Below are positions 4,605 through 27,903 of a stretch of 27,903 bases of DNA, piece after piece. Source of the stretch: Polyangium sp. 6x1. Its GTDB lineage: Bacteria; Myxococcota_A; Polyangia; Polyangiales; Polyangiaceae. The translations under genes were made by a program, and so were the position numbers. The stretch's first letter is position 1. The number at the start of each line of letters is the position of its first letter. The notes beneath the pieces are model-generated. The model had not been told where the DNA came from, searched no databases, and worked only from the letters and a program-made list of their open reading frames with translations. Location of the stretch: positions 1 through 27,903 of the forward strand of contig NZ_JARZHH010000040.1 in NCBI RefSeq assembly GCF_029946515.1. Direction: 5' to 3'.

Positions 4605-8732
<4,128 letters not shown>

Positions 8733-13122: not shown

Positions 13123-13165
13123 ACGCCCGCCCTGTCTTCAGGCGCGGGCGTGTGTTCTTTTGTTC
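13123..13165 (+). terminator. Rho-independent terminator downstream of rpoC
   Basis: ACGCCCGC-cctgtcttcaggc-GCGGGCGT hairpin (13123-13151) is followed by gtgTTCTTTTGTTc. Confidence 0.55.
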
Positions 13166-13267
13166 GGCCAGGCACGCGCCGTCTCCTGCCGATCCGCCGG
13201 ATGGCTGCTGCTTCGCGGGTCTTGGGATCCCCCGTCGTTGCGGACATGTACTATCTCTGCACTCGCG

Positions 13268-15448
13268 ATGTCCGTGCACGGCACCAACCAGCGTGTCGCT
13301 GATCGCCTGCTCTCCGAGGGCCGGATCGGGGCCGAGGAGCATCGGCGCGCCGTGGAGCACGCGAGCCGTCAGCGTGGCCGCATCGAGGACTCCCTCGTCG
13401 AGCTCGACATCGTGCCCGAAGGAGATCTCCTCAAGTACGTCGCGACGCTGCACAACACGCGGTTCGTCTCGACCGAGAAGCTCGCGAAGGCCGCGATCGA
13501 GCCGCGCGTGCTCGGCCGCGTGTTACCGAAGACCGCGAAGATGCACGGCGTCTTCCCGGTGCTGCTCGACGAGGCGAAGTCGGTGCTCTCCGTCGTCACC
13601 GCAGATCCCGACAACGACGCTGCGATCCACGAGGTGAAGCTCGCGGCGGGCGTGCGCGAGGTGCGCGCGCTCGTGGCGCGGCCGGCGGCGGTGCGCGCTG
13701 CGATCGCGCGGCACTACTTCAAGGACGCATCGGCCTTCGAGGCGGTCCTCCGTCCGGTCGCGACGAACGCGACGACCGGCGACTTCATCGACATCGATCT
13801 CGGCCCCTCGCCGGCGCGCCCTGCGACGGGGCCCGTGCCGACGCCTGCCGCATCGCCGCGCAACACGGCCGCGCAGACGCCGCCGCCGCGCGCGCCGATG
13901 CCCACGTCTCCCTCTGCGACCGGACAAACCAGCCCGTCCGTGATGGCGCGCGAGCAGACGCAGCCCTCGCCGAATGCGGGCAGCACGCAGCCCTCCGTGA
14001 ACGGCGGCGGGCCTGCGCCGCTCGCGGCGAGCGCGCAGACGTCGCCGACCGGAGGGCACGCGCCGACCACGCAGGTTCGTCCGTTGACGGCGACCACGCC
14101 GTCGCCCACGCCGCCGCCTCCACCGGTCCCGATCCTCACGCCGATCGAGACGCACGAGTACATCGAGACGCTCAACGTCCTCGTGAGCTTGCTCGAAGCG
14201 AACCGCCAGGATCTCCGCGGCCACTCGGCCGTCGTCGCGCGCCTCTGCCGCCGCACGTGCGAGCGCATCGGCCTCGCGCCTGCGCACGTCGCGGCGTTCG
14301 TCGTGGCCGCGTACCTGCACGATCTCGGCAAGATGGGCGCGTATCACCTCACCGCGCTGAACGTCGCGGAGTACGAGGGCCACCGCGTCGCGGGCCTCAA
14401 GGCCGTCGCGCTCCCGGCGCAGCTCATGGGATCGGTCGGGCTACCCGCGGAGACCGTCGCCGCGCTGCAGGCGATGTACGAGCGATACGACGGCCGCGGC
14501 TTGCCGCATGGCCTCGCCGGCAAGGAGATCCCGCTCGGCGCGCGCATCCTCGCCGTCGCGGACACCTACGCCGATCTCACGCAGAACCCGCGCAATCCGT
14601 TCCGCAAGATCCTCCGCCCGGCCGAGGCGTGCGACGTGCTCGCCGGGTATCGCGGCACGGTCTTCGATCCGAACATCGTCGACCTCTTCCGGCACGAGGT
14701 CACGGGCGACGACATGCGCGCGCGGCTTTTGTCCGAGCGGTACACCGTGCTCGTCATCGATCCGGATCCCGAGGAGACCACGGTGCTCGAGCTTCGGCTC
14801 ATCGAGCAGGGCTTCGAGGTGCGCGTCGCGCGGACCGTGGCGCAGGCGTGGCGCGAGCTCGAGGGCGGCGAGATCGCGGCGGTCGTCAGCGAGATCGACC
14901 TCGAAGAGCCGGAGATGGGCCTCGCGCTCCGCGCCGACGCGCAGAAGGAGTCGTGGGGGCGCGGGATCACGTGGGTGATCCTCACGCGCAAGAACGACCG
15001 TCACAGCGCGCAGAAGGCCTTTGATCTCGGCGTCGACGACTTCGTCGCGAAGCCGACGTCCGCGGACATCTTCGCCGCGAAGCTCCGTCAGCTCGTCGAG
15101 CGCCGCGTCGCGCGCGGCGGCGGGCGTGGCGTGACGGGATCGCTCGCGGAGATGAGCATTCCGGACATGGTCCAGGTCCTCTGGCATGGCCGCAAGACGT
15201 GCGCGCTGCGGATCCAGACTGGCAAGGGCACGGGCGAGATCCACTTCGCGGATGGGCAGGTCGTGGACGCGCGCTGGGAGCAGGTCGTCGGCGAGGAGGC
15301 CTTCTACCGGATGCTCACGTTGAACGAGGGCGAGTTCCGGCTCGAGCCGGGCGTCGAGCCCTCCGGCCGCACGATCGCTGCTTCGCCCGAGGCGCTCTTG
15401 CTCGAAGGCATGCGCCGCCTCGACGAGGGCATGCTGCACGCGCCGTAG
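13268..15448 (+). CDS. Multidomain c-di-GMP-type signalling protein: T2SSE_N/MshEN-like N-domain – Pro/Ala/Thr-rich linker – HD-GYP domain with degenerate GYP and HHE motifs – REC receiver – DUF4388-like C-domain
   Basis: 726 aa from the ATG at 13268 (MSVHGTNQRV...); the track ORF begins at an upstream alternative start. The N-domain (RVADRLLSEGRIGAEEHRRAVEHASRQ…VFPVLLDEAKSVLSVVTADPDNDAAIHEV…) fits the GspE-N / T2SSE_N profile. The HD-GYP core is HSAVVARLCRRTCERIGL…YLHDLGKMG…YERYDGRGLPHGLAGKEIPLGARILAVADTYADL; GYP is replaced by GLP and the HHE metal ligands are absent. REC: YTVLVIDPDPEE…VVSEIDLEEPEMG…WVILTRKND…FVAKP. The C-terminus LAEMSIPDMVQVLWHGRKTCALRIQTGKGTGEIHFADGQVVDARWEQVVGEEAFYRMLTLNEGEFRLE resembles DUF4388. 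Domain calls are from motif recognition, not a database search. Confidence 0.8.
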   Translation: MSVHGTNQRVADRLLSEGRIGAEEHRRAVEHASRQRGRIEDSLVELDIVPEGDLLKYVATLHNTRFVSTEKLAKAAIEPRVLGRVLPKTAKMHGVFPVLLDEAKSVLSVVTADPDNDAAIHEVKLAAGVREVRALVARPAAVRAAIARHYFKDASAFEAVLRPVATNATTGDFIDIDLGPSPARPATGPVPTPAASPRNTAAQTPPPRAPMPTSPSATGQTSPSVMAREQTQPSPNAGSTQPSVNGGGPAPLAASAQTSPTGGHAPTTQVRPLTATTPSPTPPPPPVPILTPIETHEYIETLNVLVSLLEANRQDLRGHSAVVARLCRRTCERIGLAPAHVAAFVVAAYLHDLGKMGAYHLTALNVAEYEGHRVAGLKAVALPAQLMGSVGLPAETVAALQAMYERYDGRGLPHGLAGKEIPLGARILAVADTYADLTQNPRNPFRKILRPAEACDVLAGYRGTVFDPNIVDLFRHEVTGDDMRARLLSERYTVLVIDPDPEETTVLELRLIEQGFEVRVARTVAQAWRELEGGEIAAVVSEIDLEEPEMGLALRADAQKESWGRGITWVILTRKNDRHSAQKAFDLGVDDFVAKPTSADIFAAKLRQLVERRVARGGGRGVTGSLAEMSIPDMVQVLWHGRKTCALRIQTGKGTGEIHFADGQVVDARWEQVVGEEAFYRMLTLNEGEFRLEPGVEPSGRTIAASPEALLLEGMRRLDEGMLHAP

Positions 15449-18128: not shown

Positions 18129-19142
18129 TCAATTGCAGTTGATGCCGCAGATGAGCTCCACCTCGCCCACGCAGATGCCGTCCCAGCTCTGCTCGCAGCA
18201 ATAAGGATCGGCCTTGCAAACGGCCGCGGCGCACGGGTTGCACGTCGGATCCAGCGCGCCGCCGTTTCCCTGGCAGATCGAGTGCGCGCAGTTGCAGCTC
18301 ACGCCGCACTTCATCGTGGCCGCGTCCACGCAGGCCTGGTTCCAGCCCGTCGTGCAGCACTCGGGCTGATCCATGCACACCGACGTGATGCACGGATCCG
18401 CGCCGCAGATCATGTCCGCGAGGTAGGAGCAGGCTCCGTTCCACGGCGCGCTCGAGTTCATGCCGCAGCAGTTCGCGTCCTGCATGCACACCTCGTCCAC
18501 GCAAGACGCGCGGCAGACGTCCGGATCGAGCGCCTCGCCCGTGCCGCAGACCGAGTGCGGGCACTCCGCGCAGGGCCCGCAATCCTCGGCGCACGAGCCA
18601 CAATCCTCGCCGCCGTTGCACGCGCCGTCGCCGCAGAAGCAGGCGCCGCAGTCGTTCGGGCACGTGTCGCACGTCTCGCCGTTGCACTCGCCGTTGCCGC
18701 AGCAGCCGGCGTTGCAGAGCTGATCGGCGAGCGCGACGCAGTTGCCGCCCCAGAATCCGTCGCAACACCCAGCGCCGTTCTGCGACCCGCAGACCTGCGC
18801 GACGCAGGAATTGCAGCCGTCCGTGAGCGGGTCCCCGACGGTGCAGACCGCGTGCTGGCAGACGTCGCCGCCGCCCGATGAGGACGAGGAGGACGACGAC
18901 GACGACGACGAAGACGAGGACGAGGACGAGGACGCGCTTGAGCTCGATGCGCTCGACGAGGACGACGAGGACGACGAGGCGGACGACGACGACGCGCTCA
19001 TGCCGCCCATGCCGCCGCTTCCGCCTGCGCCGCCGTCACCGCCCGCGCCGGCGTTGTTTCGCGTGCCGAAGAGGTCCCTGCCGTCGGCGGTACACCCGGC
19101 CGCGGCAAGCGCGGCGATCGCAAGCAAGCACGTGAATCGCAT
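18129..19142 (-). CDS. Secreted cysteine-rich lipoprotein with a ~40-residue poly-Ser tract and four repeats of a ~50-aa 8-Cys module
   Basis: Start ATG 19142 ([17 protein letters not shown]; lipobox AAGC) with RBS AGGAG 7 nt upstream; the track start at 19160 is an in-frame TTG. Has a poly-Ser tract; four modules of the type C..S.C..G.ALDP.C..C...VC..D..CC...W...C......C; and a central [37 protein letters not shown] segment resembling the Myxococcus cysteine-rich repeat. Confidence 0.75.
   Translation of the reverse strand: [337 protein letters not shown]
18877..18992. repeat. Imperfect trinucleotide tract (GAC/GAG/GAA)n on the + strand, i.e. (TCN)n poly-Ser codons on the - strand
   Basis: ~115 nt of gaggacgaggaggacgacgacgacgacgacgaagacgaggacgag..., encoding [40 protein letters not shown] in the minus-strand lipoprotein. 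Confidence 0.8.
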
Positions 19143-22214: not shown

Positions 22215-23114
22215 GTGCGCGTGTTCTTCTGCGATCACGTGGAGGTCCCGCTTCCGCCCGGGCATCGCTTCCCGATGGCGAAGTACGCGCGCCTTCGCGA
22301 GCGCTTGCTGGAAGCTCGCCTGCTCGATCCGACCGACCTCCTGCCCTCGACGCCCGCCTCGATCGCCGACCTCGAGCGTGTCCACGCGCTGTCCTACCTC
22401 GAAGGCTTGCTCTCGGGCACGCTCGACCCCCGCGTCCTCCGCGCCATCGGTTTTCCCTGGTCCGACGCGCTCATGCGCCGGTCCCGGGCCAGCGTCTCCG
22501 GCACGATCTGCGCGGGCCGCGCCGCCCTGGAGGACGGCATTTCGGGAAACCTCGCCGGCGGGACGCACCACGCGTTTGCCGATCGGGGCGCTGGATTCTG
22601 CGTCTTCAACGACATCGCGGTCGCCTGCCGCACCTTGCTCGACGCGGGCGACGTCCGCCGGGTGCTCGTCCTCGACCTCGACGTCCACCAGGGCGACGGC
22701 ACCGCGGCCATTTTCGAGGGCGAGCCGCGCGTCTATACGGCCTCGATCCACGGCGAGAAGAATTTCCCTTTTCACAAGCAGCGAAGCGACCTCGACCTCG
22801 CGCTGCCGGACCGGACGGGCGACGACGAATACCTTGGCGCGCTCGAACCCTTTCTCGCGCGCGCGTTCGCCGAATCGAACCCCGATTTGGTGTTTTTCCA
22901 GGGCGGCGTGGACGCGCTTGGGGCGGATAAATTGGGCCGGCTTGGCATGACGGCCGCGGGCATGCGCCGGAGGGACGAGCGTGTCCTCGGGGAAGCGCGC
23001 CGCCGGGGCATTCCGATCGCGCTCACGCTCGGCGGCGGTTATGCCGATCCCATCGACGCGACCCTCGACGCGCACGTCGGGACGTATGCCGTCGCCCGCG
23101 AGGTCTTCGGATGA
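22215..23114 (+). CDS. Histone-deacetylase/acetoin-utilisation (AcuC/HDAC) superfamily Zn-dependent amidohydrolase
   Basis: 299 aa from GTG 22215 with RBS AAGGAG 5 nt upstream. Motifs GGTHHAFADRGAGFCVFNDIAVA, VLVLDLDVHQGDGT, YTASIHGEKNFPF and LGGGYADP correspond to the HDAC catalytic-His / Zn-ligand / catalytic-Tyr positions. Divergent from the DUF58 operon. Confidence 0.8.
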   Translation: MRVFFCDHVEVPLPPGHRFPMAKYARLRERLLEARLLDPTDLLPSTPASIADLERVHALSYLEGLLSGTLDPRVLRAIGFPWSDALMRRSRASVSGTICAGRAALEDGISGNLAGGTHHAFADRGAGFCVFNDIAVACRTLLDAGDVRRVLVLDLDVHQGDGTAAIFEGEPRVYTASIHGEKNFPFHKQRSDLDLALPDRTGDDEYLGALEPFLARAFAESNPDLVFFQGGVDALGADKLGRLGMTAAGMRRRDERVLGEARRRGIPIALTLGGGYADPIDATLDAHVGTYAVAREVFG

Positions 23115-23491
23115 CGCCCGGACGAACCACGCTGCTCCTGCTCGCGGCTTTGCTCCCGGCCTGCCGCGGCGGCGACTCCGCGGAGCCCTCTCCCGCTCCG
23201 CCCGAGCCCACGGCATCGGCCGCGCCTTCTGCTGCAATGCCGCGGCGCCCGACGATCCGCCATTACCTCGCGCGCACGGCCGAGCGATGCGAGGTGTATT
23301 CGGTCGACCGGGACGCCGTCTCTCCGGCGACGCGCACGCCCTGCCCGCAGGATTTGCAGGTCGGCGAGCGTATTCGTGTCACGGGCAAATCGTGCTTGCG
23401 GGAGGGGAGCACGGAGCGGACGCAGCCGGTGGTTTGTCCGGGGGCGCTGCTCTCGGCGGCGCGGCCGGCGACGGTGGATGGGGGGGGTTAG
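23111..23491 (+). CDS. Small predicted lipoprotein (126 aa)
   Basis: ATG overlaps the HDAC stop (ATGA). Signal peptide/lipobox MTPGRTTLLLLAALLPAC. GC3-biased codon usage; four further Cys. No recognisable family. Confidence 0.45.
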   Translation: MTPGRTTLLLLAALLPACRGGDSAEPSPAPPEPTASAAPSAAMPRRPTIRHYLARTAERCEVYSVDRDAVSPATRTPCPQDLQVGERIRVTGKSCLREGSTERTQPVVCPGALLSAARPATVDGGG

Positions 23492-23528: not shown

Positions 23529-24689
23529 ATGGAGCGTACCCTCGGAACCTTGGGAATCAGGGTTCAAGGGAAAATCGGCGATAAATACGAGCTCTCGACC
23601 GTTCTCGGGGAGGGGGCGATAGGCACGGTCTACGCCGCGAAGAACCTGCAAACCGGCCGGCGCGTGGCGATCAAATCGCTGCGGCTGGGGAGCGTCCTTG
23701 CCCCGCATGATCCCGAGCTCCTGCGCTTCGAGCAGGAGGCGCGCATCGCGGGGTCGCTCGCGTCGGAGCACATCGCCCAGGTGCTCGACATCGAGCGGGA
23801 TCCCGCCACGGACGCGCCGTTTCTCGTGATGGAGCTGCTCCGCGGCGAGGACTTGCAATCCCTCCTCGACCGGGTCGGTCCCTTGCAGGTCGACGTGGCG
23901 CTGCGGATCGCGGCGCAGGTTTGCGTGGGGCTCGCGGCGGCGCATGCGGCGGGCGTGGTGCATCGGGACATCAAGCCCGGCAATCTCTTTCTCGCGCGGC
24001 GGGAAGGCGGCGCAATCGTGGTCAAGATCCTCGATTTCGGCCTCGCCAAGATCCGGCGCCTCCCACCGGATCCTTCCACGAGCGCCGCGCCTTTGGCCCT
24101 CTCGGCACCGCAGCTCTCCATGACCGAGACGGGGCAGCTCCTCGGCTCGCCGCTTTACATGTCGCCGGAGCAGCTCGACGGCGCGAAAGGCGTCGACGCA
24201 CGCAGCGACCTGTTTTCGCTGGCGGTGACGCTGTTCGCGATGCTCGCCGGAAAGCCGCCGCATGCGGACGTCAAATCGTTCCCCTTGCTGCTCAAGCATA
24301 TCGCGACGAAGCCGATGCCCAAGGTGCGCGAGGTCGTGCCGGGGGTCGGCCCCGATGTGGAGGCGCTCCTCGAACGGGCGTCACGGCTGGAGCGTGAAGA
24401 ACGGTTCTCCAGCGCGGCGGCGATGCTCGAAGCGATGATGCCCCTCTTGGCGGGAGGCATGGCGTTGCGGGAGGACATGCTCGTCGGCCGCAGGGACGCG
24501 CCCAGCGAGGTGGGCATGACCCAGGTGAAGAGCGATCCGTACGCCACGATCGAGCGCGCGGTGGCCGAGGAACGGGCGCCGACGGAGGCGACGGTCGCGT
24601 CGCGCCCCCGGCGATGGCCTGTGTGGCTCGGGATCGCCGTCGTCCTCGTGGCGGCGGTCGTGATGGCCCTCGGACTCCTTGGGCGCTAA
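23529..24689 (+). CDS. Hanks-type Ser/Thr protein kinase with C-terminal transmembrane anchor
   Basis: 386 aa. GEGAIGTVY (P-loop), VAIKSL (VAIK Lys), HRDIKPGNLFL (catalytic loop), DFGLAK, SPEQ. C-terminal hydrophobic WPVWLGIAVVLVAAVVMALGLLGR. Confidence 0.88.
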   Translation: MERTLGTLGIRVQGKIGDKYELSTVLGEGAIGTVYAAKNLQTGRRVAIKSLRLGSVLAPHDPELLRFEQEARIAGSLASEHIAQVLDIERDPATDAPFLVMELLRGEDLQSLLDRVGPLQVDVALRIAAQVCVGLAAAHAAGVVHRDIKPGNLFLARREGGAIVVKILDFGLAKIRRLPPDPSTSAAPLALSAPQLSMTETGQLLGSPLYMSPEQLDGAKGVDARSDLFSLAVTLFAMLAGKPPHADVKSFPLLLKHIATKPMPKVREVVPGVGPDVEALLERASRLEREERFSSAAAMLEAMMPLLAGGMALREDMLVGRRDAPSEVGMTQVKSDPYATIERAVAEERAPTEATVASRPRRWPVWLGIAVVLVAAVVMALGLLGR

Positions 24690-24691
24690 GG

Positions 24692-26416
24692 ATGGGCATG
24701 AACCAGCGGCAAATCCTGGGTTTCGTCGATCGGCTCCGGAAGGCGAGAACCTTCGAGGACGCCGCGCACACCTTGCTGCGCGCGATGCTCGACGCGGCGC
24801 TCGCGGCGCTCGCGGAGAGCGGTTTCGCCGGCCGCGGCAAGATCCTCCGCGGCATGGCGCACTGGCGGCCCGGCGACGGCTACCGGCGACTGGTCCTCCT
24901 CGACGACACGCAGCGCGGCGGCGAGCCGACCATCAACTATTTGCCCTCCGTGAGCGCGTGGCGCTGGGTCGTCACGCGCGCATGCCCCATTGCGATCGAC
25001 GTCCCGCTCGGCCGCGTATGGTCGTGGCAAAACGAATCCGCGAACGTGTTCCAGGAGGGCGGATTCTCCGGTCAGGACAGCGTGCTTCGGCTGACGAGCC
25101 GCGACACGAGCCACCTTTACGCGATCCCGCTGCGCACCCTGCACGGCGCGATCGAGGGAATGGCCACCGTCGAGGCGGGGTGCCCGAGGGCTCTCGGCGA
25201 CGATTTCATCTTTCCGGCCATTCACGAACCGCTCGAGCTCCTCGCCGACCTCGCGGCGCCTTACCTCGCGACCCTCCCGCCCCGGCCCGCGGCGACCGGC
25301 GCGACCGACGACCTCTTGCCCGTCATGGGCCAGAGCATGGCGGGCTTGATCGACATGCTCCGCGTCTTTGCGCAGCAGGAGGAGACCCTGCTCATCGGCG
25401 GTCCCACGGGTGCAGGCAAATCGCGCCTCGCGCGCTGGTGCCACGCGCGATCGGTCCGGCGCGGGGCGCCCTTCGAGGTCCTCGACCTCATCGCCGTGCC
25501 CGAGGAGCTGCAAATGGCGGAGCTCTTCGGCTGGAAAAAGGGCGCGTTCACGGGCGCGGTGCGCGATACGCCCGGGTGCATCACGCGGGCCTTCAAGGGG
25601 ACGTTGTTCATCGACGAGATCGACAAACTCTCGCTGAAAGCGCAGGCGGGATTGCTCCAGCTCCTCGAATCGCGTACGTATCGCCCGATCGGGGACGGCG
25701 CGCGAGAGCAGCTGGCGAACGTGCGTTTCATCGTGGGGAGCAACGTCGACCTGTACGATCAGGTGAAGGCCGGTCGATTTCGGGAGGACCTTTACTACCG
25801 GATCAACGTGCTCCCGGTGCAGATCCCCCCGCTCGACGAGCGCCGGGACGAAATCGCGGAATGGGCGCGCTTCATGGCCACGCGGCGCCATCGAGAATCG
25901 GTCCCGGGCGGGGAAGCGCGGATCGCGGCCGGCGCGGAGCGGCTGCTCGGCGAGCACAGCTGGCCGGGCAATTTGCGGCAGCTCGACAACGTCGTCCGCC
26001 GGGCGTACGCGCTCGCGCTCATGACGCAGGGCGAGGCAGGGCTCGAGATCTTGCTGGAGGAAAAGCATTTCGCGCGCGCCCTGAGCTACGAGCGGGGGAG
26101 CGGGCGAAGGTCGACCCTCGACGACCTGCGCGTCGCGGCGGGCGCGATCGTGGAAGAGGCCGAGCGGCAGCAGGGAAAGGGCCTCGTGCTCGACCTGGAG
26201 CTCTCGGACGCATTCCGCGGCATCGTGCTCGGCACGGCGGTGGAGCGGCTCGGCAGCAAGGACGCGGCGTTCCGGCTTTTTGGGAAGGGCGCGCAGGTGC
26301 AGGCGCGCAATCACCACAAGATGCTGCGGCGCGAGCTGGAGAAGGTCGAGGCGCTCTGCAAGGCGCTCGGGGAGGACGGCGGGCCCTTTCGGGAGCTGGG
26401 GGACGACGAGGCCTGA
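24692..26416 (+). CDS. Sigma-54-dependent transcriptional activator (bEBP): N-terminal sensory domain (GAF-like?) + AAA+ sigma54-interaction domain + C-terminal Fis-type HTH
   Basis: 574 aa from the ATG at 24692, 2 nt after the kinase stop. Walker A GGPTGAGKSRLA, GAFTGA motif (WKKGAFTGA), Walker B TLFIDEID, ESRTYRPIG, R-finger region RFREDLYYRINVLPVQIPPLDERRDEI, WPGNLRQL. C-terminal ...AVERLGSKDAAFRLFGKG...MLRRELEK is HTH_8-like. Confidence 0.88.
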   Translation: MGMNQRQILGFVDRLRKARTFEDAAHTLLRAMLDAALAALAESGFAGRGKILRGMAHWRPGDGYRRLVLLDDTQRGGEPTINYLPSVSAWRWVVTRACPIAIDVPLGRVWSWQNESANVFQEGGFSGQDSVLRLTSRDTSHLYAIPLRTLHGAIEGMATVEAGCPRALGDDFIFPAIHEPLELLADLAAPYLATLPPRPAATGATDDLLPVMGQSMAGLIDMLRVFAQQEETLLIGGPTGAGKSRLARWCHARSVRRGAPFEVLDLIAVPEELQMAELFGWKKGAFTGAVRDTPGCITRAFKGTLFIDEIDKLSLKAQAGLLQLLESRTYRPIGDGAREQLANVRFIVGSNVDLYDQVKAGRFREDLYYRINVLPVQIPPLDERRDEIAEWARFMATRRHRESVPGGEARIAAGAERLLGEHSWPGNLRQLDNVVRRAYALALMTQGEAGLEILLEEKHFARALSYERGSGRRSTLDDLRVAAGAIVEEAERQQGKGLVLDLELSDAFRGIVLGTAVERLGSKDAAFRLFGKGAQVQARNHHKMLRRELEKVEALCKALGEDGGPFRELGDDEA

Positions 26417-26512
26417 GCGCCCCGGGCTCCGCGTCCACGGGTGACGCAGGCGCGTACCTACGTTACGCGCGCCGAGCCCCGCGCGGGCCCCGCGTCTGGG
26501 CGAGGCTCGTGG

Positions 26513-26531
26513 GCACGTAGCTTTCACGTGC
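26513..26531. promoter_or_regulatory. Inverted repeat GCACGT-N7-ACGTGC upstream of the astacin-like gene
   Basis: gcacgtagctttcacgtgc lies 97 nt after the bEBP stop and about 25 nt upstream of the -24 element. Candidate activator/repressor binding site, or a weak terminator hairpin. Confidence 0.3.
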
Positions 26532-26554
26532 CTTTCGGGCCTGTCTCTCGCGTG

Positions 26555-26570
26555 TCGGCATGCGGGTTGC
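26555..26570 (+). promoter_or_regulatory. Candidate sigma54 (-24/-12) promoter
   Basis: tcGGCATGcgggTTGCt matches the TGGCAC-N5-TTGC(A/T) spacing: GG at 26557-58, GC at 26569-70, exactly 10 nt apart. Lies ~65 nt upstream of the ATG at 26636 and directly downstream of a bEBP gene. Confidence 0.4.
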
Positions 26571-26635
26571 TTTGCGGCTCTCCGCACCGCGAGCAACGCG
26601 GCCCAACATAGTATCCCGCTGGAGCTTCGACACCC

Positions 26636-27903
26636 ATGAAACGTTATCATTCGATGGCGATTGCCATCGCGTCGGTCCTTGCCATTTCCTACGCGTCGGC
26701 CGGCTGCTCTGGCCCGGCCGAACCCTCCGCCGAGGAAAACGTTCAGACGGACGTGGGCCCGCTTTATGTGGCCTCGACGAAGTTGTGGAGCACGCAGACC
26801 GTCCAGGTCTGCTGGGAAAACCCCAGCGCAGCGCCTCAAGCCGAGAGAGACTGGGTCCGACAAGCCGTCCTCAGGACGTGGGACGCCCACACGTGGGTGG
26901 ATTTTAATGGCTGGGGTACATGCACCAGCTCGTCGAATGGAATTCGCATTCGAATCGCCGATGATGCCGAGGGCCCACACACAAAGGGGCTCGGCACCGA
27001 TCTCGACGGCATGACGGATGGTATGGAATTGAACTTCACCTTCCAGAACTGGGACGGCCCGGACTGTCAGAGCAAGCGCCAGTTCTGCATCGAAGCAATC
27101 GGAGTGCACGAGTTCGGGCACGCGCTCGGATTCGCTCACGAGCAGAATCGGCCCGACACCCCGTCGGACTGCGACATGAGGCAGGGGAGCTACGGTGACC
27201 TTACCGTCAACCCGTGGGATGCGGATTCGGTGATGAATTACTGCAATCTGAAATGGAACAACGACGGCGCGCTCAGCCAGAGCGACATCGCCGGCGCGAT
27301 CGCGATGTACGGCATTCCGCGATGGATAACGCAATACGGCTATGTTCACGGATGGCGTGTGGACAAGCACCCCCGTATGATGGCGGACGTCAACGACGAT
27401 GGGATGCAGGATGTCGTCGCATTCGGCGATGCGGGGACGCTCGTGTCCAGGTCCACCGGGACCGGCTTCATGGCGCCGGAACTATGGGTGGACCAATTCA
27501 ATTACGATCACGGCTGGCGCACCGAGTATCACGAGCGGATGATGGCGGATGTCAACAACGATGACAAGCAGGACATCGTCGGCTTTGGGGACGCAGGCGT
27601 GCTGGTCTCGCTCTCGACGGGAACTTCGTTCACGGCGCCGTCACTCTGGGTCGCCGATTATGGCTGGAATCAGGGCTACCGCGTGGACAAGCACCCGCGC
27701 ATGATGGCCGACGTCAACAACGATGGGAGGCTGGACGTCGTCGCTTTCGGGGACAATGGCGTGGTCGTGTCGCTCTCGACGGGAAGCTCCTTCACGGCGC
27801 CGTCGCTCTGGCTCGCCAGTTACGGCTACAATCAAGGCTATCGCATCGACCAGCACCCGCGCATGATGGCCGACGTCAACAACGATGGGAAACAAGACGT
27901 CGT
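26636..27903 (+). CDS. Astacin-like (M12A-type metzincin) zinc metallopeptidase lipoprotein with C-terminal tandem FG-GAP-like repeats; 3' end outside window
   Basis: Hand translation of frame 26636 (absent from the ORF track because no stop occurs before the window end): MKRYHSMAIAIASVLAISYASAGCSG (lipobox SAGC) … HEFGHALGFAHEQNRPD (HExxHxxGxxHE zinc site) … SVMNY (Met-turn with Tyr). Then ≥4 repeats of ~55 aa: (Y/W)R(V/I)D(K/Q)HPRMMADVNNDG.QDVVAFGD.GVVVSLSTG.SFTAPSLW. Confidence 0.8.
   Translation, partial: MKRYHSMAIAIASVLAISYASAGCSGPAEPSAEENVQTDVGPLYVASTKLWSTQTVQVCWENPSAAPQAERDWVRQAVLRTWDAHTWVDFNGWGTCTSSSNGIRIRIADDAEGPHTKGLGTDLDGMTDGMELNFTFQNWDGPDCQSKRQFCIEAIGVHEFGHALGFAHEQNRPDTPSDCDMRQGSYGDLTVNPWDADSVMNYCNLKWNNDGALSQSDIAGAIAMYGIPRWITQYGYVHGWRVDKHPRMMADVNDDGMQDVVAFGDAGTLVSRSTGTGFMAPELWVDQFNYDHGWRTEYHERMMADVNNDDKQDIVGFGDAGVLVSLSTGTSFTAPSLWVADYGWNQGYRVDKHPRMMADVNNDGRLDVVAFGDNGVVVSLSTGSSFTAPSLWLASYGYNQGYRIDQHPRMMADVNNDGKQDV
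27322..27903 (+). repeat. Tandem ~165-nt coding repeats (≥3.5 copies) encoding FG-GAP-like blades
   Basis: Recurrent gacaagcacccgcgcatgatggccgacgtcaacaacgatggg... units at ~27361, ~27528, ~27686, ~27850. Continue beyond the window end. Confidence 0.7.

Follow-up and report, generated by a model that had tools for sequence, protein, structure and literature searches.

A candidate kinase-linked sigma-54 cassette and a recurrent enhancer–promoter module ahead of secreted-protein genes in Polyangium

The group III bacterial enhancer-binding proteins (bEBPs) with a GAF domain, that is, NifA, NorR, FhlA, and Nlh1 and Nlh2 of Aquifex, are among the closest described counterparts of a sigma-54 activator encoded in a 27,903-nucleotide stretch of DNA from Polyangium sp. 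6x1 (contig NZ_JARZHH010000040.1). This stretch, called the window throughout, is a high-GC (0.63–0.77) chromosomal segment of a Polyangium-like myxobacterium. Toward its 3′ end, genes for a Hanks-type Ser/Thr kinase and for the activator are followed by a candidate enhancer, a putative sigma-54 promoter and the gene for an astacin-like metalloprotease. The activator is like the group III bEBPs in architecture and likely mechanism, and it differs from them as follows. Its GAF domain is too divergent for Pfam or Protein Data Bank (PDB) sequence profiles, its C-terminal domain is not a recognizable Fis-type helix-turn-helix (HTH), and its gene is translationally coupled to that of a Hanks kinase. 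The predicted targets of its family are secreted lipoproteins and proteases, not functions in nitrogen, NO or formate metabolism.

To our knowledge, Hanks kinases and sigma-54 activators are both more numerous in myxobacteria than in any other known group, and we know of few links between the two networks beyond the FHA-domain activators. The FHA-type activators of Myxococcus xanthus carry a phosphothreonine-binding FHA domain. Reportedly, Jelsbak, Givskov and Kaiser proposed in 2005 (cited in PMC12288465) that these proteins are coupled to Ser/Thr kinases. The window locus would share with them the concept that Hanks kinases, not histidine kinases, feed sigma-54 activators. In contrast, the window activator has a GAF fold and no FHA domain, and its putative kinase partner is encoded in the same operon.

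The M. xanthus protein PexR (MXAN_1565) is an H2O2-sensing GAF-bEBP with an autoinhibitory GAF domain and His/His/Cys/Asp metal ligands. Its binding sites are multiple dyad repeats located upstream of sigma-54 promoters, and conservation across the Myxococcota extends to the protein as well as to these elements. The PexR enhancer is CACCG-n6-CGGTG. PexR acts on the neighboring genes ahpC, katB and ccp, and the paper links it to no kinase (PMC12754779). The window activator has the same myxobacterial layout of a GAF domain, an AAA+ domain and a putative DNA-binding domain, but its candidate enhancer is GCGT-N9-ACGC-N4-GCGT, and its neighbors are a kinase and secreted lipoproteins. PexR was considered as the M. 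xanthus ortholog of the window activator and ruled out, since locus, enhancer and neighbors all differ; the M. xanthus ortholog is a different protein (P0087). A further comparison is offered by Nla28 of M. xanthus, an NtrC-type activator that acts at tandem half-site enhancers with the half-site CT(C/G)CG(C/G)AG, and by the myxobacterial sigma-54 consensus, TGGCACG-N4-TTGC(T/A) (PMC9765219). The AAA+ core, the tandem half-site arrangement and the promoter consensus are shared with the window locus, whereas the half-site sequence is another one and the window activator has neither a receiver (REC) domain nor a histidine kinase partner nearby. A search of the gene list and of Pfam matches for such a partner returned no histidine kinase gene in the 22–27.9 kb segment.

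The protease belongs with the myxobacterial fusions of an astacin (M12A) domain to FG-GAP/VCBS repeats, with which it shares the HExxHxxGFxHE and SxMxY motifs; homologs in Haliangium and Archangium are annotated as 'Peptidase M12A astacin'. Its catalytic domain appears divergent beyond the 22 residues around the zinc site. Full-text literature searches returned nothing on sigma-54 in Polyangium and no description of a pairing between a kinase and a GAF-bEBP. Three things are new here: a separate GAF subfamily that has an enhancer motif to itself, its repeated link to Hanks kinases at the level of the operon, and a seemingly portable enhancer–promoter module for secreted proteins.

The elements of the cassette are listed below in window coordinates. 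All of those named in a first-pass annotation of this DNA were confirmed, each at the position given there or a few bases away.

23529–24689, plus strand: Hanks-type Ser/Thr kinase, 386 residues; Pfam Pkinase (PF00069) at residues 20–297, E = 3e-39
24615–24680, plus strand: C-terminal transmembrane helix of the kinase, residues 363–384; a hydrophobic tail followed only by the residues GR
24692–26416, plus strand: sigma-54 activator (bEBP), 574 residues, by Pfam and NCBIfam matches; likely true start at ATG 24698
24692–25312, plus strand: N-terminal sensory domain of the activator, with a GAF fold that Pfam does not recognize
25400–25423, plus strand: Walker A motif, GPTGAGKS
25541–25558, plus strand: GAFTGA sigma-54 contact loop, residues 284–289, intact in sequence
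25604–25624, plus strand: Walker B motif, LFIDEID
26431–26468, no strand assigned: candidate enhancer (upstream activating sequence) from motif comparison, four half-sites, GCGT-N9-ACGC-N4-GCGT-N9-ACGC
26503–26542, plus strand: hairpin containing an inverted repeat with perfect 7-nt arms, 26512–26518 and 26526–26532
26556–26571, plus strand: predicted sigma-54 promoter, cGGCATG-CGGG-TTGCT, GG at 26557–58 and GC at 26569–70; top weight-matrix match
26621–26624, plus strand: GGAG Shine-Dalgarno sequence of the protease gene, 11 nt upstream of ATG 26636
26636–27903, plus strand: astacin-like (M12A-type) metalloprotease lipoprotein with C-terminal FG-GAP/VCBS repeats, running off the window end

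The mechanism that we propose is as follows. The kinase and activator genes would be co-transcribed and translationally coupled. Activator dimers would bind the four half-sites just past the activator's own stop codon; once active, they would assemble into a ring and loop the DNA over about 90 bp, and ATP hydrolysis, acting through the GAFTGA loops, would open the sigma-54 promoter and activate the gene for the astacin-like FG-GAP lipoprotein. In the absence of a signal, the GAF domain would restrain the ATPase. Such autoinhibition is probable by analogy with NifA, NorR and PexR. The tail-anchored kinase, which has no sensor ectodomain, would be the best candidate to deliver or tune the signal by phosphorylating the activator. 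The enhancer–promoter module would be portable, and it would have been duplicated in the lineage of the window, where one copy would drive a horizontally acquired protease gene. We are confident, from the comparative data given below, that control of the sigma-54 promoter, and with it of the protease gene, lies with the activator. Direct gating of the activator through phosphorylation by the kinase is plausible, and we lean slightly against it. The kinase-linked sigma-54 cassette as a whole is a reading that we favor without being sure of it.

The evidence that carries the proposal comes from the regions downstream of the activator gene, which were compared in five genomes. In each genome, the top sigma-54 matches of the locus fall downstream of the activator gene, and about 60–140 nt upstream of those matches lies a common block, GCGTCC-N-GGTACGC-N4/5-GCGTACC-N-ACGC. 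The half-site cores of this block are the invariant columns over eight promoter regions from the five genomes. The window block begins 15 nt past the activator stop and ends 88 nt ahead of the promoter, and within it a perfect dyad, GCGCGTA-N7-TACGCGC, extends over bp 26450–26470. The four-half-site pattern has no other match in the window, where 0.00 are expected. Between the window and its two closest relatives, the block differs by three substitutions only, all of them outside the half-site cores.

The association of the motif with the activator was then counted across loci. The family loci come from genomes and from 29 metagenomic contigs that a search with the GAF domain had returned. The controls are 80 unrelated bEBP loci from a profile scan of genome contigs with the full-length activator alignment, a scan that keyed on generic AAA+ patterns (FREDLYYR) and yielded no orthologs. 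A three-half-site pattern was used, and a cluster was scored as upstream of a sigma-54 match when it lay 40–160 nt ahead of one of at least 12.5 bits in the correct orientation. The counts were as follows.

Family loci (40 loci, 404 kb): 35 enhancer clusters in 26 loci; 20 clusters, in 18 loci, upstream of a sigma-54 match
High-GC unrelated-bEBP loci (30 loci, 333 kb): 1 enhancer cluster; 0 upstream of a sigma-54 match
Shuffled family loci (same size): 1.3 enhancer clusters; 0 upstream of a sigma-54 match

Motif and activator occur together in Polyangium, Sorangium, Cystobacter and Myxococcus. Since the activator is the only gene common to these contexts, it is the most likely protein to bind the candidate enhancer. 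In M. xanthus (L002) the motif, at 7713–7750, is followed by a weak sigma-54-like site (7815–7830, 11.8 bits) upstream of the activator gene itself, and in the metagenomic contig L103 it lies at 4649–4686, just 5′ of the activator gene. This placement suggests that the activator may regulate its own gene in these two loci, where it has no kinase neighbor.

The promoter itself was evaluated with a home-made weight matrix, built from consensus frequencies attributed to Barrios et al. (1999) and used for ranking only. The scan, which the first-pass annotation had proposed as a check, ranks the element at 26556–26571 first in the whole 27.9 kb, with 14.7 bits, and the well-spaced GG-N10-GC described there is this same element. 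The pattern GGCAY-N5-TTGCW occurs once in the window against 0.12 expected, a value that falls to about 5e-4 for this intergenic strand. A 27-nt block containing the −24 and −12 elements is 100% identical in P. sorediatum and P. jinanense (L090, L091), while the flanks carry indels. By these comparative criteria the assignment as a sigma-54 promoter is supported, and a transcription start is predicted near 26581–26583, about 12 nt downstream of the GC. The second-best matrix match in the window, TGGAACGGAGCCTGCT (18428–18443, minus strand, 13.1 bits), lies within a DUF8252-like open reading frame, away from any enhancer motif, and probably arose by chance.

The activator consists of three domains. 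A divergent GAF domain (residues 1–207) is followed by the AAA+ domain (214–442), with a Sigma54_activat (PF00158) match at residues 214–376 (E = 4e-47), and by a family-specific helical C-terminal domain (about 476–574). The motif GAFTGA, which the first-pass annotation had called intact, is so: in an alignment of 18 homologs, no substitution occurs at G284, F286, G288 or A289 and hardly any at A285, and T287 is replaced by Ser in three sequences. The Walker A and Walker B positions are invariant in this alignment. The full-length AlphaFold2 model has a pLDDT of 81, and a Foldseek search with it returned AAA+ cores only, the best being the AAA+ domains of NtrC1, FlrC and FleQ. Matches to NtrC models of NCBIfam extend to residues 532–540. 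The C-terminal domain is conserved, with an invariant R539-N540-H541. Full-length orthologs are spread over the Myxococcota; the P. jinanense protein is 96% identical to the window activator and the P. sorediatum protein 90%. An exact look-up with the window activator sequence returned no match.

Concerning the kinase, its catalytic motifs (Gly-loop, VAIK, HRDIKPGN, DFG and SPE) are all present. As its one hydrophobic C-terminal helix is followed by two residues, the protein appears to be tail-anchored without an ectodomain, in line with the membrane-anchored Hanks kinase of the first-pass annotation. The same annotation placed the end of the kinase gene 2 nt before the activator gene. This holds for the first ATG, 24692, which is 2 nt past the kinase TAA stop; for ATG 24698 the gap is 8 nt. 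We favor the latter because an AAGGA Shine-Dalgarno sequence (within 24687–24700) overlaps the TAA and lies 5–6 nt ahead of it, and because the orthologs start in the corresponding way (MNQRQ…). With either start the two genes are translationally coupled.

The pairing recurs. Orthologs of the tail-anchored kinase (52–93% identity) adjoin the activator in all ten Polyangium-type loci, and the adjacency persists where the upstream context is different (P. aurulentum) or the gene order is rearranged (Polyangium sp. 15x6). More distant members of the family have other kinases: six contigs carry a different one (about 40% identity) upstream of the activator gene, in six contigs the gene directly downstream codes for yet another (about 31% identity), and Cystobacter has an unrelated small kinase transcribed divergently from the activator. 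Overall, a Hanks kinase is adjacent in about 24 of the 33 family loci with enough flanking sequence. The corresponding figure for the controls, with a kinase counted within about 6 kb, is 1 of 80 unrelated bEBP loci, most of which come from non-myxobacterial phyla that are poor in Hanks kinases. Three arrangements involving different kinase subfamilies are good evidence that kinase and activator are functionally coupled, and adjacency leaves the substrate of the kinase unspecified. That the substrate is the activator is suggested by gene context.

Several observations weigh against the kinase-linked cassette. No kinase gene adjoins the activator gene in M. xanthus or in several metagenomic members of the family, and the make-up of the control set bears on the contrast just given. 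No FHA domain was found in the activator with Pfam and NCBIfam, and the 18-sequence alignment showed no convincing conserved Ser/Thr acceptor in the linker between the GAF and AAA+ domains. The C-terminal domain gave no match to HTH_8 or to any other Pfam or PDB sequence entry, and an hhalign comparison with E. coli Fis was negative. The promoter has a C in place of the T at −26, and the protease is the target in three close genomes only. Finally, a domain with a GAF fold points to a ligand, a metal or the redox state as input, and such an input could make the kinase dispensable.

The last point leads to an alternative that we regard as possible but rather unlikely, namely that the activator does control the promoter, with its GAF domain sensing a small molecule, a metal or the redox state, and that the kinase has other substrates or is a parallel output of the operon. 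The first-pass annotation had argued from the missing REC domain to kinase control. Its premise stands: Pfam found neither a REC nor any other domain in residues 1–210 or 443–574, and profile searches of the N-terminal domain against Pfam and PDB sequences gave no match. The step from there to a kinase instead of a ligand does not follow, because the domain has the GAF fold, a classic autoinhibitory sensor. In addition, His57, Asp103, His141, Glu161 and Cys164 of the GAF domain (24692–25312) are invariant across genera, and by analogy with PexR (PMC12754779) and NorR they could form a metal, ligand or redox site. The M. xanthus ortholog has the same N-terminal domain and no kinase beside it. 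On the other side, the neighbors of the activator repeatedly include kinases, of at least three subfamilies and in three arrangements, and this recurrence is hard to explain without functional coupling.

The remaining alternatives concern single parts of the cassette. It is improbable that the palindrome at 26512–26532 is the binding site of the activator or another operator of the protease promoter. The first-pass annotation had reported this palindrome after the activator stop, and it is indeed there, beginning 96 nt past the stop; its perfect 7-nt arms lie 25–45 nt upstream of the −24 element, and a similar hairpin-like sequence, GCTTCACCTGCC, is found in one promoter region of P. spumosum. 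The regulatory role is not supported. In the three-species alignment, the stretch is deleted in P. jinanense and replaced or diverged in P. sorediatum, while the promoter and the 26431–26468 element are kept, so the palindrome is a lineage-specific feature and not a conserved regulatory element. The homologous copies upstream of the 308-residue lipoprotein gene described below have no palindrome and no stable fold (z about +2), the palindrome is no part of the cross-genus motif, and it is too near the −24 element for a typical enhancer. The hairpin at 26503–26542 folds strongly as RNA (−25.3 kcal/mol, z = −4.9), and it may be a 3′-end or terminator-like hairpin of the kinase–activator transcript.

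We consider it very unlikely that the GG-N10-GC is fortuitous and that the protease gene is expressed by read-through from the kinase–bEBP operon or from an unrecognized sigma-70-type promoter. The deviation at −26 would agree with this, as would the shared strand of the genes and the lack of a U-rich terminator after the activator gene. Against it are the uniqueness of the match, the perfect conservation of the promoter block beside indel-rich sequence, the same enhancer-to-promoter spacing in 18 loci, and the strong hairpin between the activator stop and the promoter. A scan of the intergenic region for terminators and sigma-70 promoters returned nothing meaningful, with one 'terminator' call, at chance level, that overlaps the sigma-54 promoter.

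That the kinase is an anti-phage defense kinase unrelated to the activator is scarcely credible: the PD-T4-6 models of PADLOC match it with E down to 3e-74, but they fit any Hanks catalytic domain and such matches were set aside as generic, the locus is part of a conserved chromosomal core (secE-rpl-rpoBC … panB, BatA, DUF58), and the kinase is inherited vertically together with the activator.

We turn to the output of the predicted switch. The secreted astacin-like/FG-GAP lipoprotein of the first-pass annotation has all the expected features: a lipoprotein signal ending in SAGC, the zinc motif HEFGHALGFAHE at residues 158–169 (27107–27142), which fits HExxHxxGxxHE, the Met-turn SVMNY at residues 198–202 (27227–27241), which fits SxMxY, and FG-GAP repeats (Pfam FG-GAP_3, E = 2e-11). 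The Pfam Astacin match scores 27.4 bits against a cut-off of 22.5 and covers only 22 residues around the zinc site. Full-length orthologs have 596–598 residues. Conservation of the trio, also suggested as a check, was found in the two closest genomes, those of P. sorediatum and P. jinanense, where kinase, activator and protease are kept together (protease orthologs P0121 and P0122, with 93% and 87% identity). There the trio is followed by a gene for a 308-residue lipoprotein and then by a large convergent kinase gene with TPR repeats.

As the output of the switch, then, the protease holds for the window and these two species. Elsewhere the same module would drive other secreted lipoproteins. 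The slot is without an astacin gene in five other genomes, and this is so for P. fumosum, P. spumosum, P. aurulentum, Polyangium sp. 15x6 and related metagenomic contigs; the predicted targets there are Cys-rich lipoproteins (about 270–320 residues, no Pfam match), RCC1-repeat lipoproteins or an M4 peptidase. Nearly all predicted targets of the module have a signal peptide or lipobox, which fits the proposal, put forward in the title of PMC3162934, that sigma-54 controls the cell exterior. The Cys-rich family is the most conserved sigma-54-promoted neighbor of the activator, and its genes are located as follows.

L001: 13076–14035, Cys-rich lipoprotein gene
L084: 10650–11555 and 9727–10533, Cys-rich lipoprotein genes
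L085: 11704–12540, Cys-rich lipoprotein gene
L086: 11500–12342, Cys-rich lipoprotein gene
L087: 7903–8823 and 10231–11172, Cys-rich lipoprotein genes
L090: 12035–12961, Cys-rich lipoprotein gene
L091: 12006–12932, Cys-rich lipoprotein gene

The protease gene has a GC content of 0.607, against 0.68–0.69 for the kinase and activator genes, and the nearest relatives of its product outside Polyangium are scattered over Haliangium, Archangium and gammaproteobacterial metagenome-assembled genomes. Together these two properties suggest that the gene was acquired horizontally. A second, nearly identical enhancer region of about 130 nt precedes the 308-residue lipoprotein gene (L090: 11848–11997; L091: 11818–11968) and has a sigma-54 promoter of its own, TGGCA(T/C)GACGGGTGCA; by synteny, this copy would lie just past the 3′ end of the window. 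The second copy suggests that insertion of the protease gene went along with a duplication of the regulatory module. Most simply, an acquired protease gene would have landed between the activator and lipoprotein genes, together with a duplication of the enhancer.

It is tempting to take these elements together as a third route into sigma-54 activators, in which an operon-encoded Hanks kinase phosphorylates a GAF-type activator that has neither a REC nor an FHA domain, and in which the cassette is a mobile module, duplicated to capture acquired genes for secreted proteins. We offer this as a speculation that is more likely wrong than right. If it were true, extracellular proteolysis and surface remodeling would be under the control of a eukaryote-like kinase. 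The cassette is, in any case, a compact candidate model for signaling from a kinase to sigma-54, with one kinase, one activator, a 38-bp enhancer and one promoter, and its predicted output is clear, a secreted metalloprotease or lipoprotein. It also provides a concrete case in which a gene new to the genome may have been brought under an existing circuit through a duplicated enhancer–promoter module, and the uncharacterized Cys-rich lipoprotein family gains a candidate regulator and a candidate DNA motif.

Further kinase genes were seen around these loci. The one control locus with a kinase is in a Planctomycetota metagenome-assembled genome (L031: 445–2854), with the kinase gene about 750 nt downstream of the bEBP match, and it may hint at a kinase–bEBP pairing outside the Myxococcota. 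The large Ser/Thr kinase with TPR repeats (1067–1174 residues) is encoded on the opposite strand a few kb downstream in all Polyangium-type loci, past the end of the window, and is possibly a second kinase input or a partner. Its genes are as follows.

L001: 13944–17231, TPR-repeat kinase
L084: 11774–15298, TPR-repeat kinase
L085: 12780–15995, TPR-repeat kinase
L086: 12516–15731, TPR-repeat kinase
L087: 11195–14440, TPR-repeat kinase
L090: 13004–16207, TPR-repeat kinase
L091: 12975–16178, TPR-repeat kinase

Upstream of the cassette, two more genes lie on the same strand.

22215–23114, plus strand: histone-deacetylase-family gene
23111–23491, plus strand: lipoprotein gene, 126 residues, ending 37 nt ahead of the kinase gene

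These two genes overlap by 4 nt (ATGA), and a single operon of this strain may comprise them together with the kinase and activator genes; P. sorediatum has further genes inserted among the four. A search of the 23–27.9 kb segment against Rfam gave no match to an RNA family. The rest of the window contains secE, rplK, rplA, rplJ, rplL, rpoB, rpoC, a gene for an HD-GYP/REC protein, a DUF2330 gene and panB, with DUF8252, BatA and DUF58 genes on the minus strand, and the gene order is also found in P. fumosum, P. spumosum, P. sorediatum and P. jinanense. Directly 3′ of rpoC, at 13160–15448, is the gene for an unusual multidomain protein that combines MshEN, an HD domain of the HD-GYP type, a receiver domain and DUF4388.

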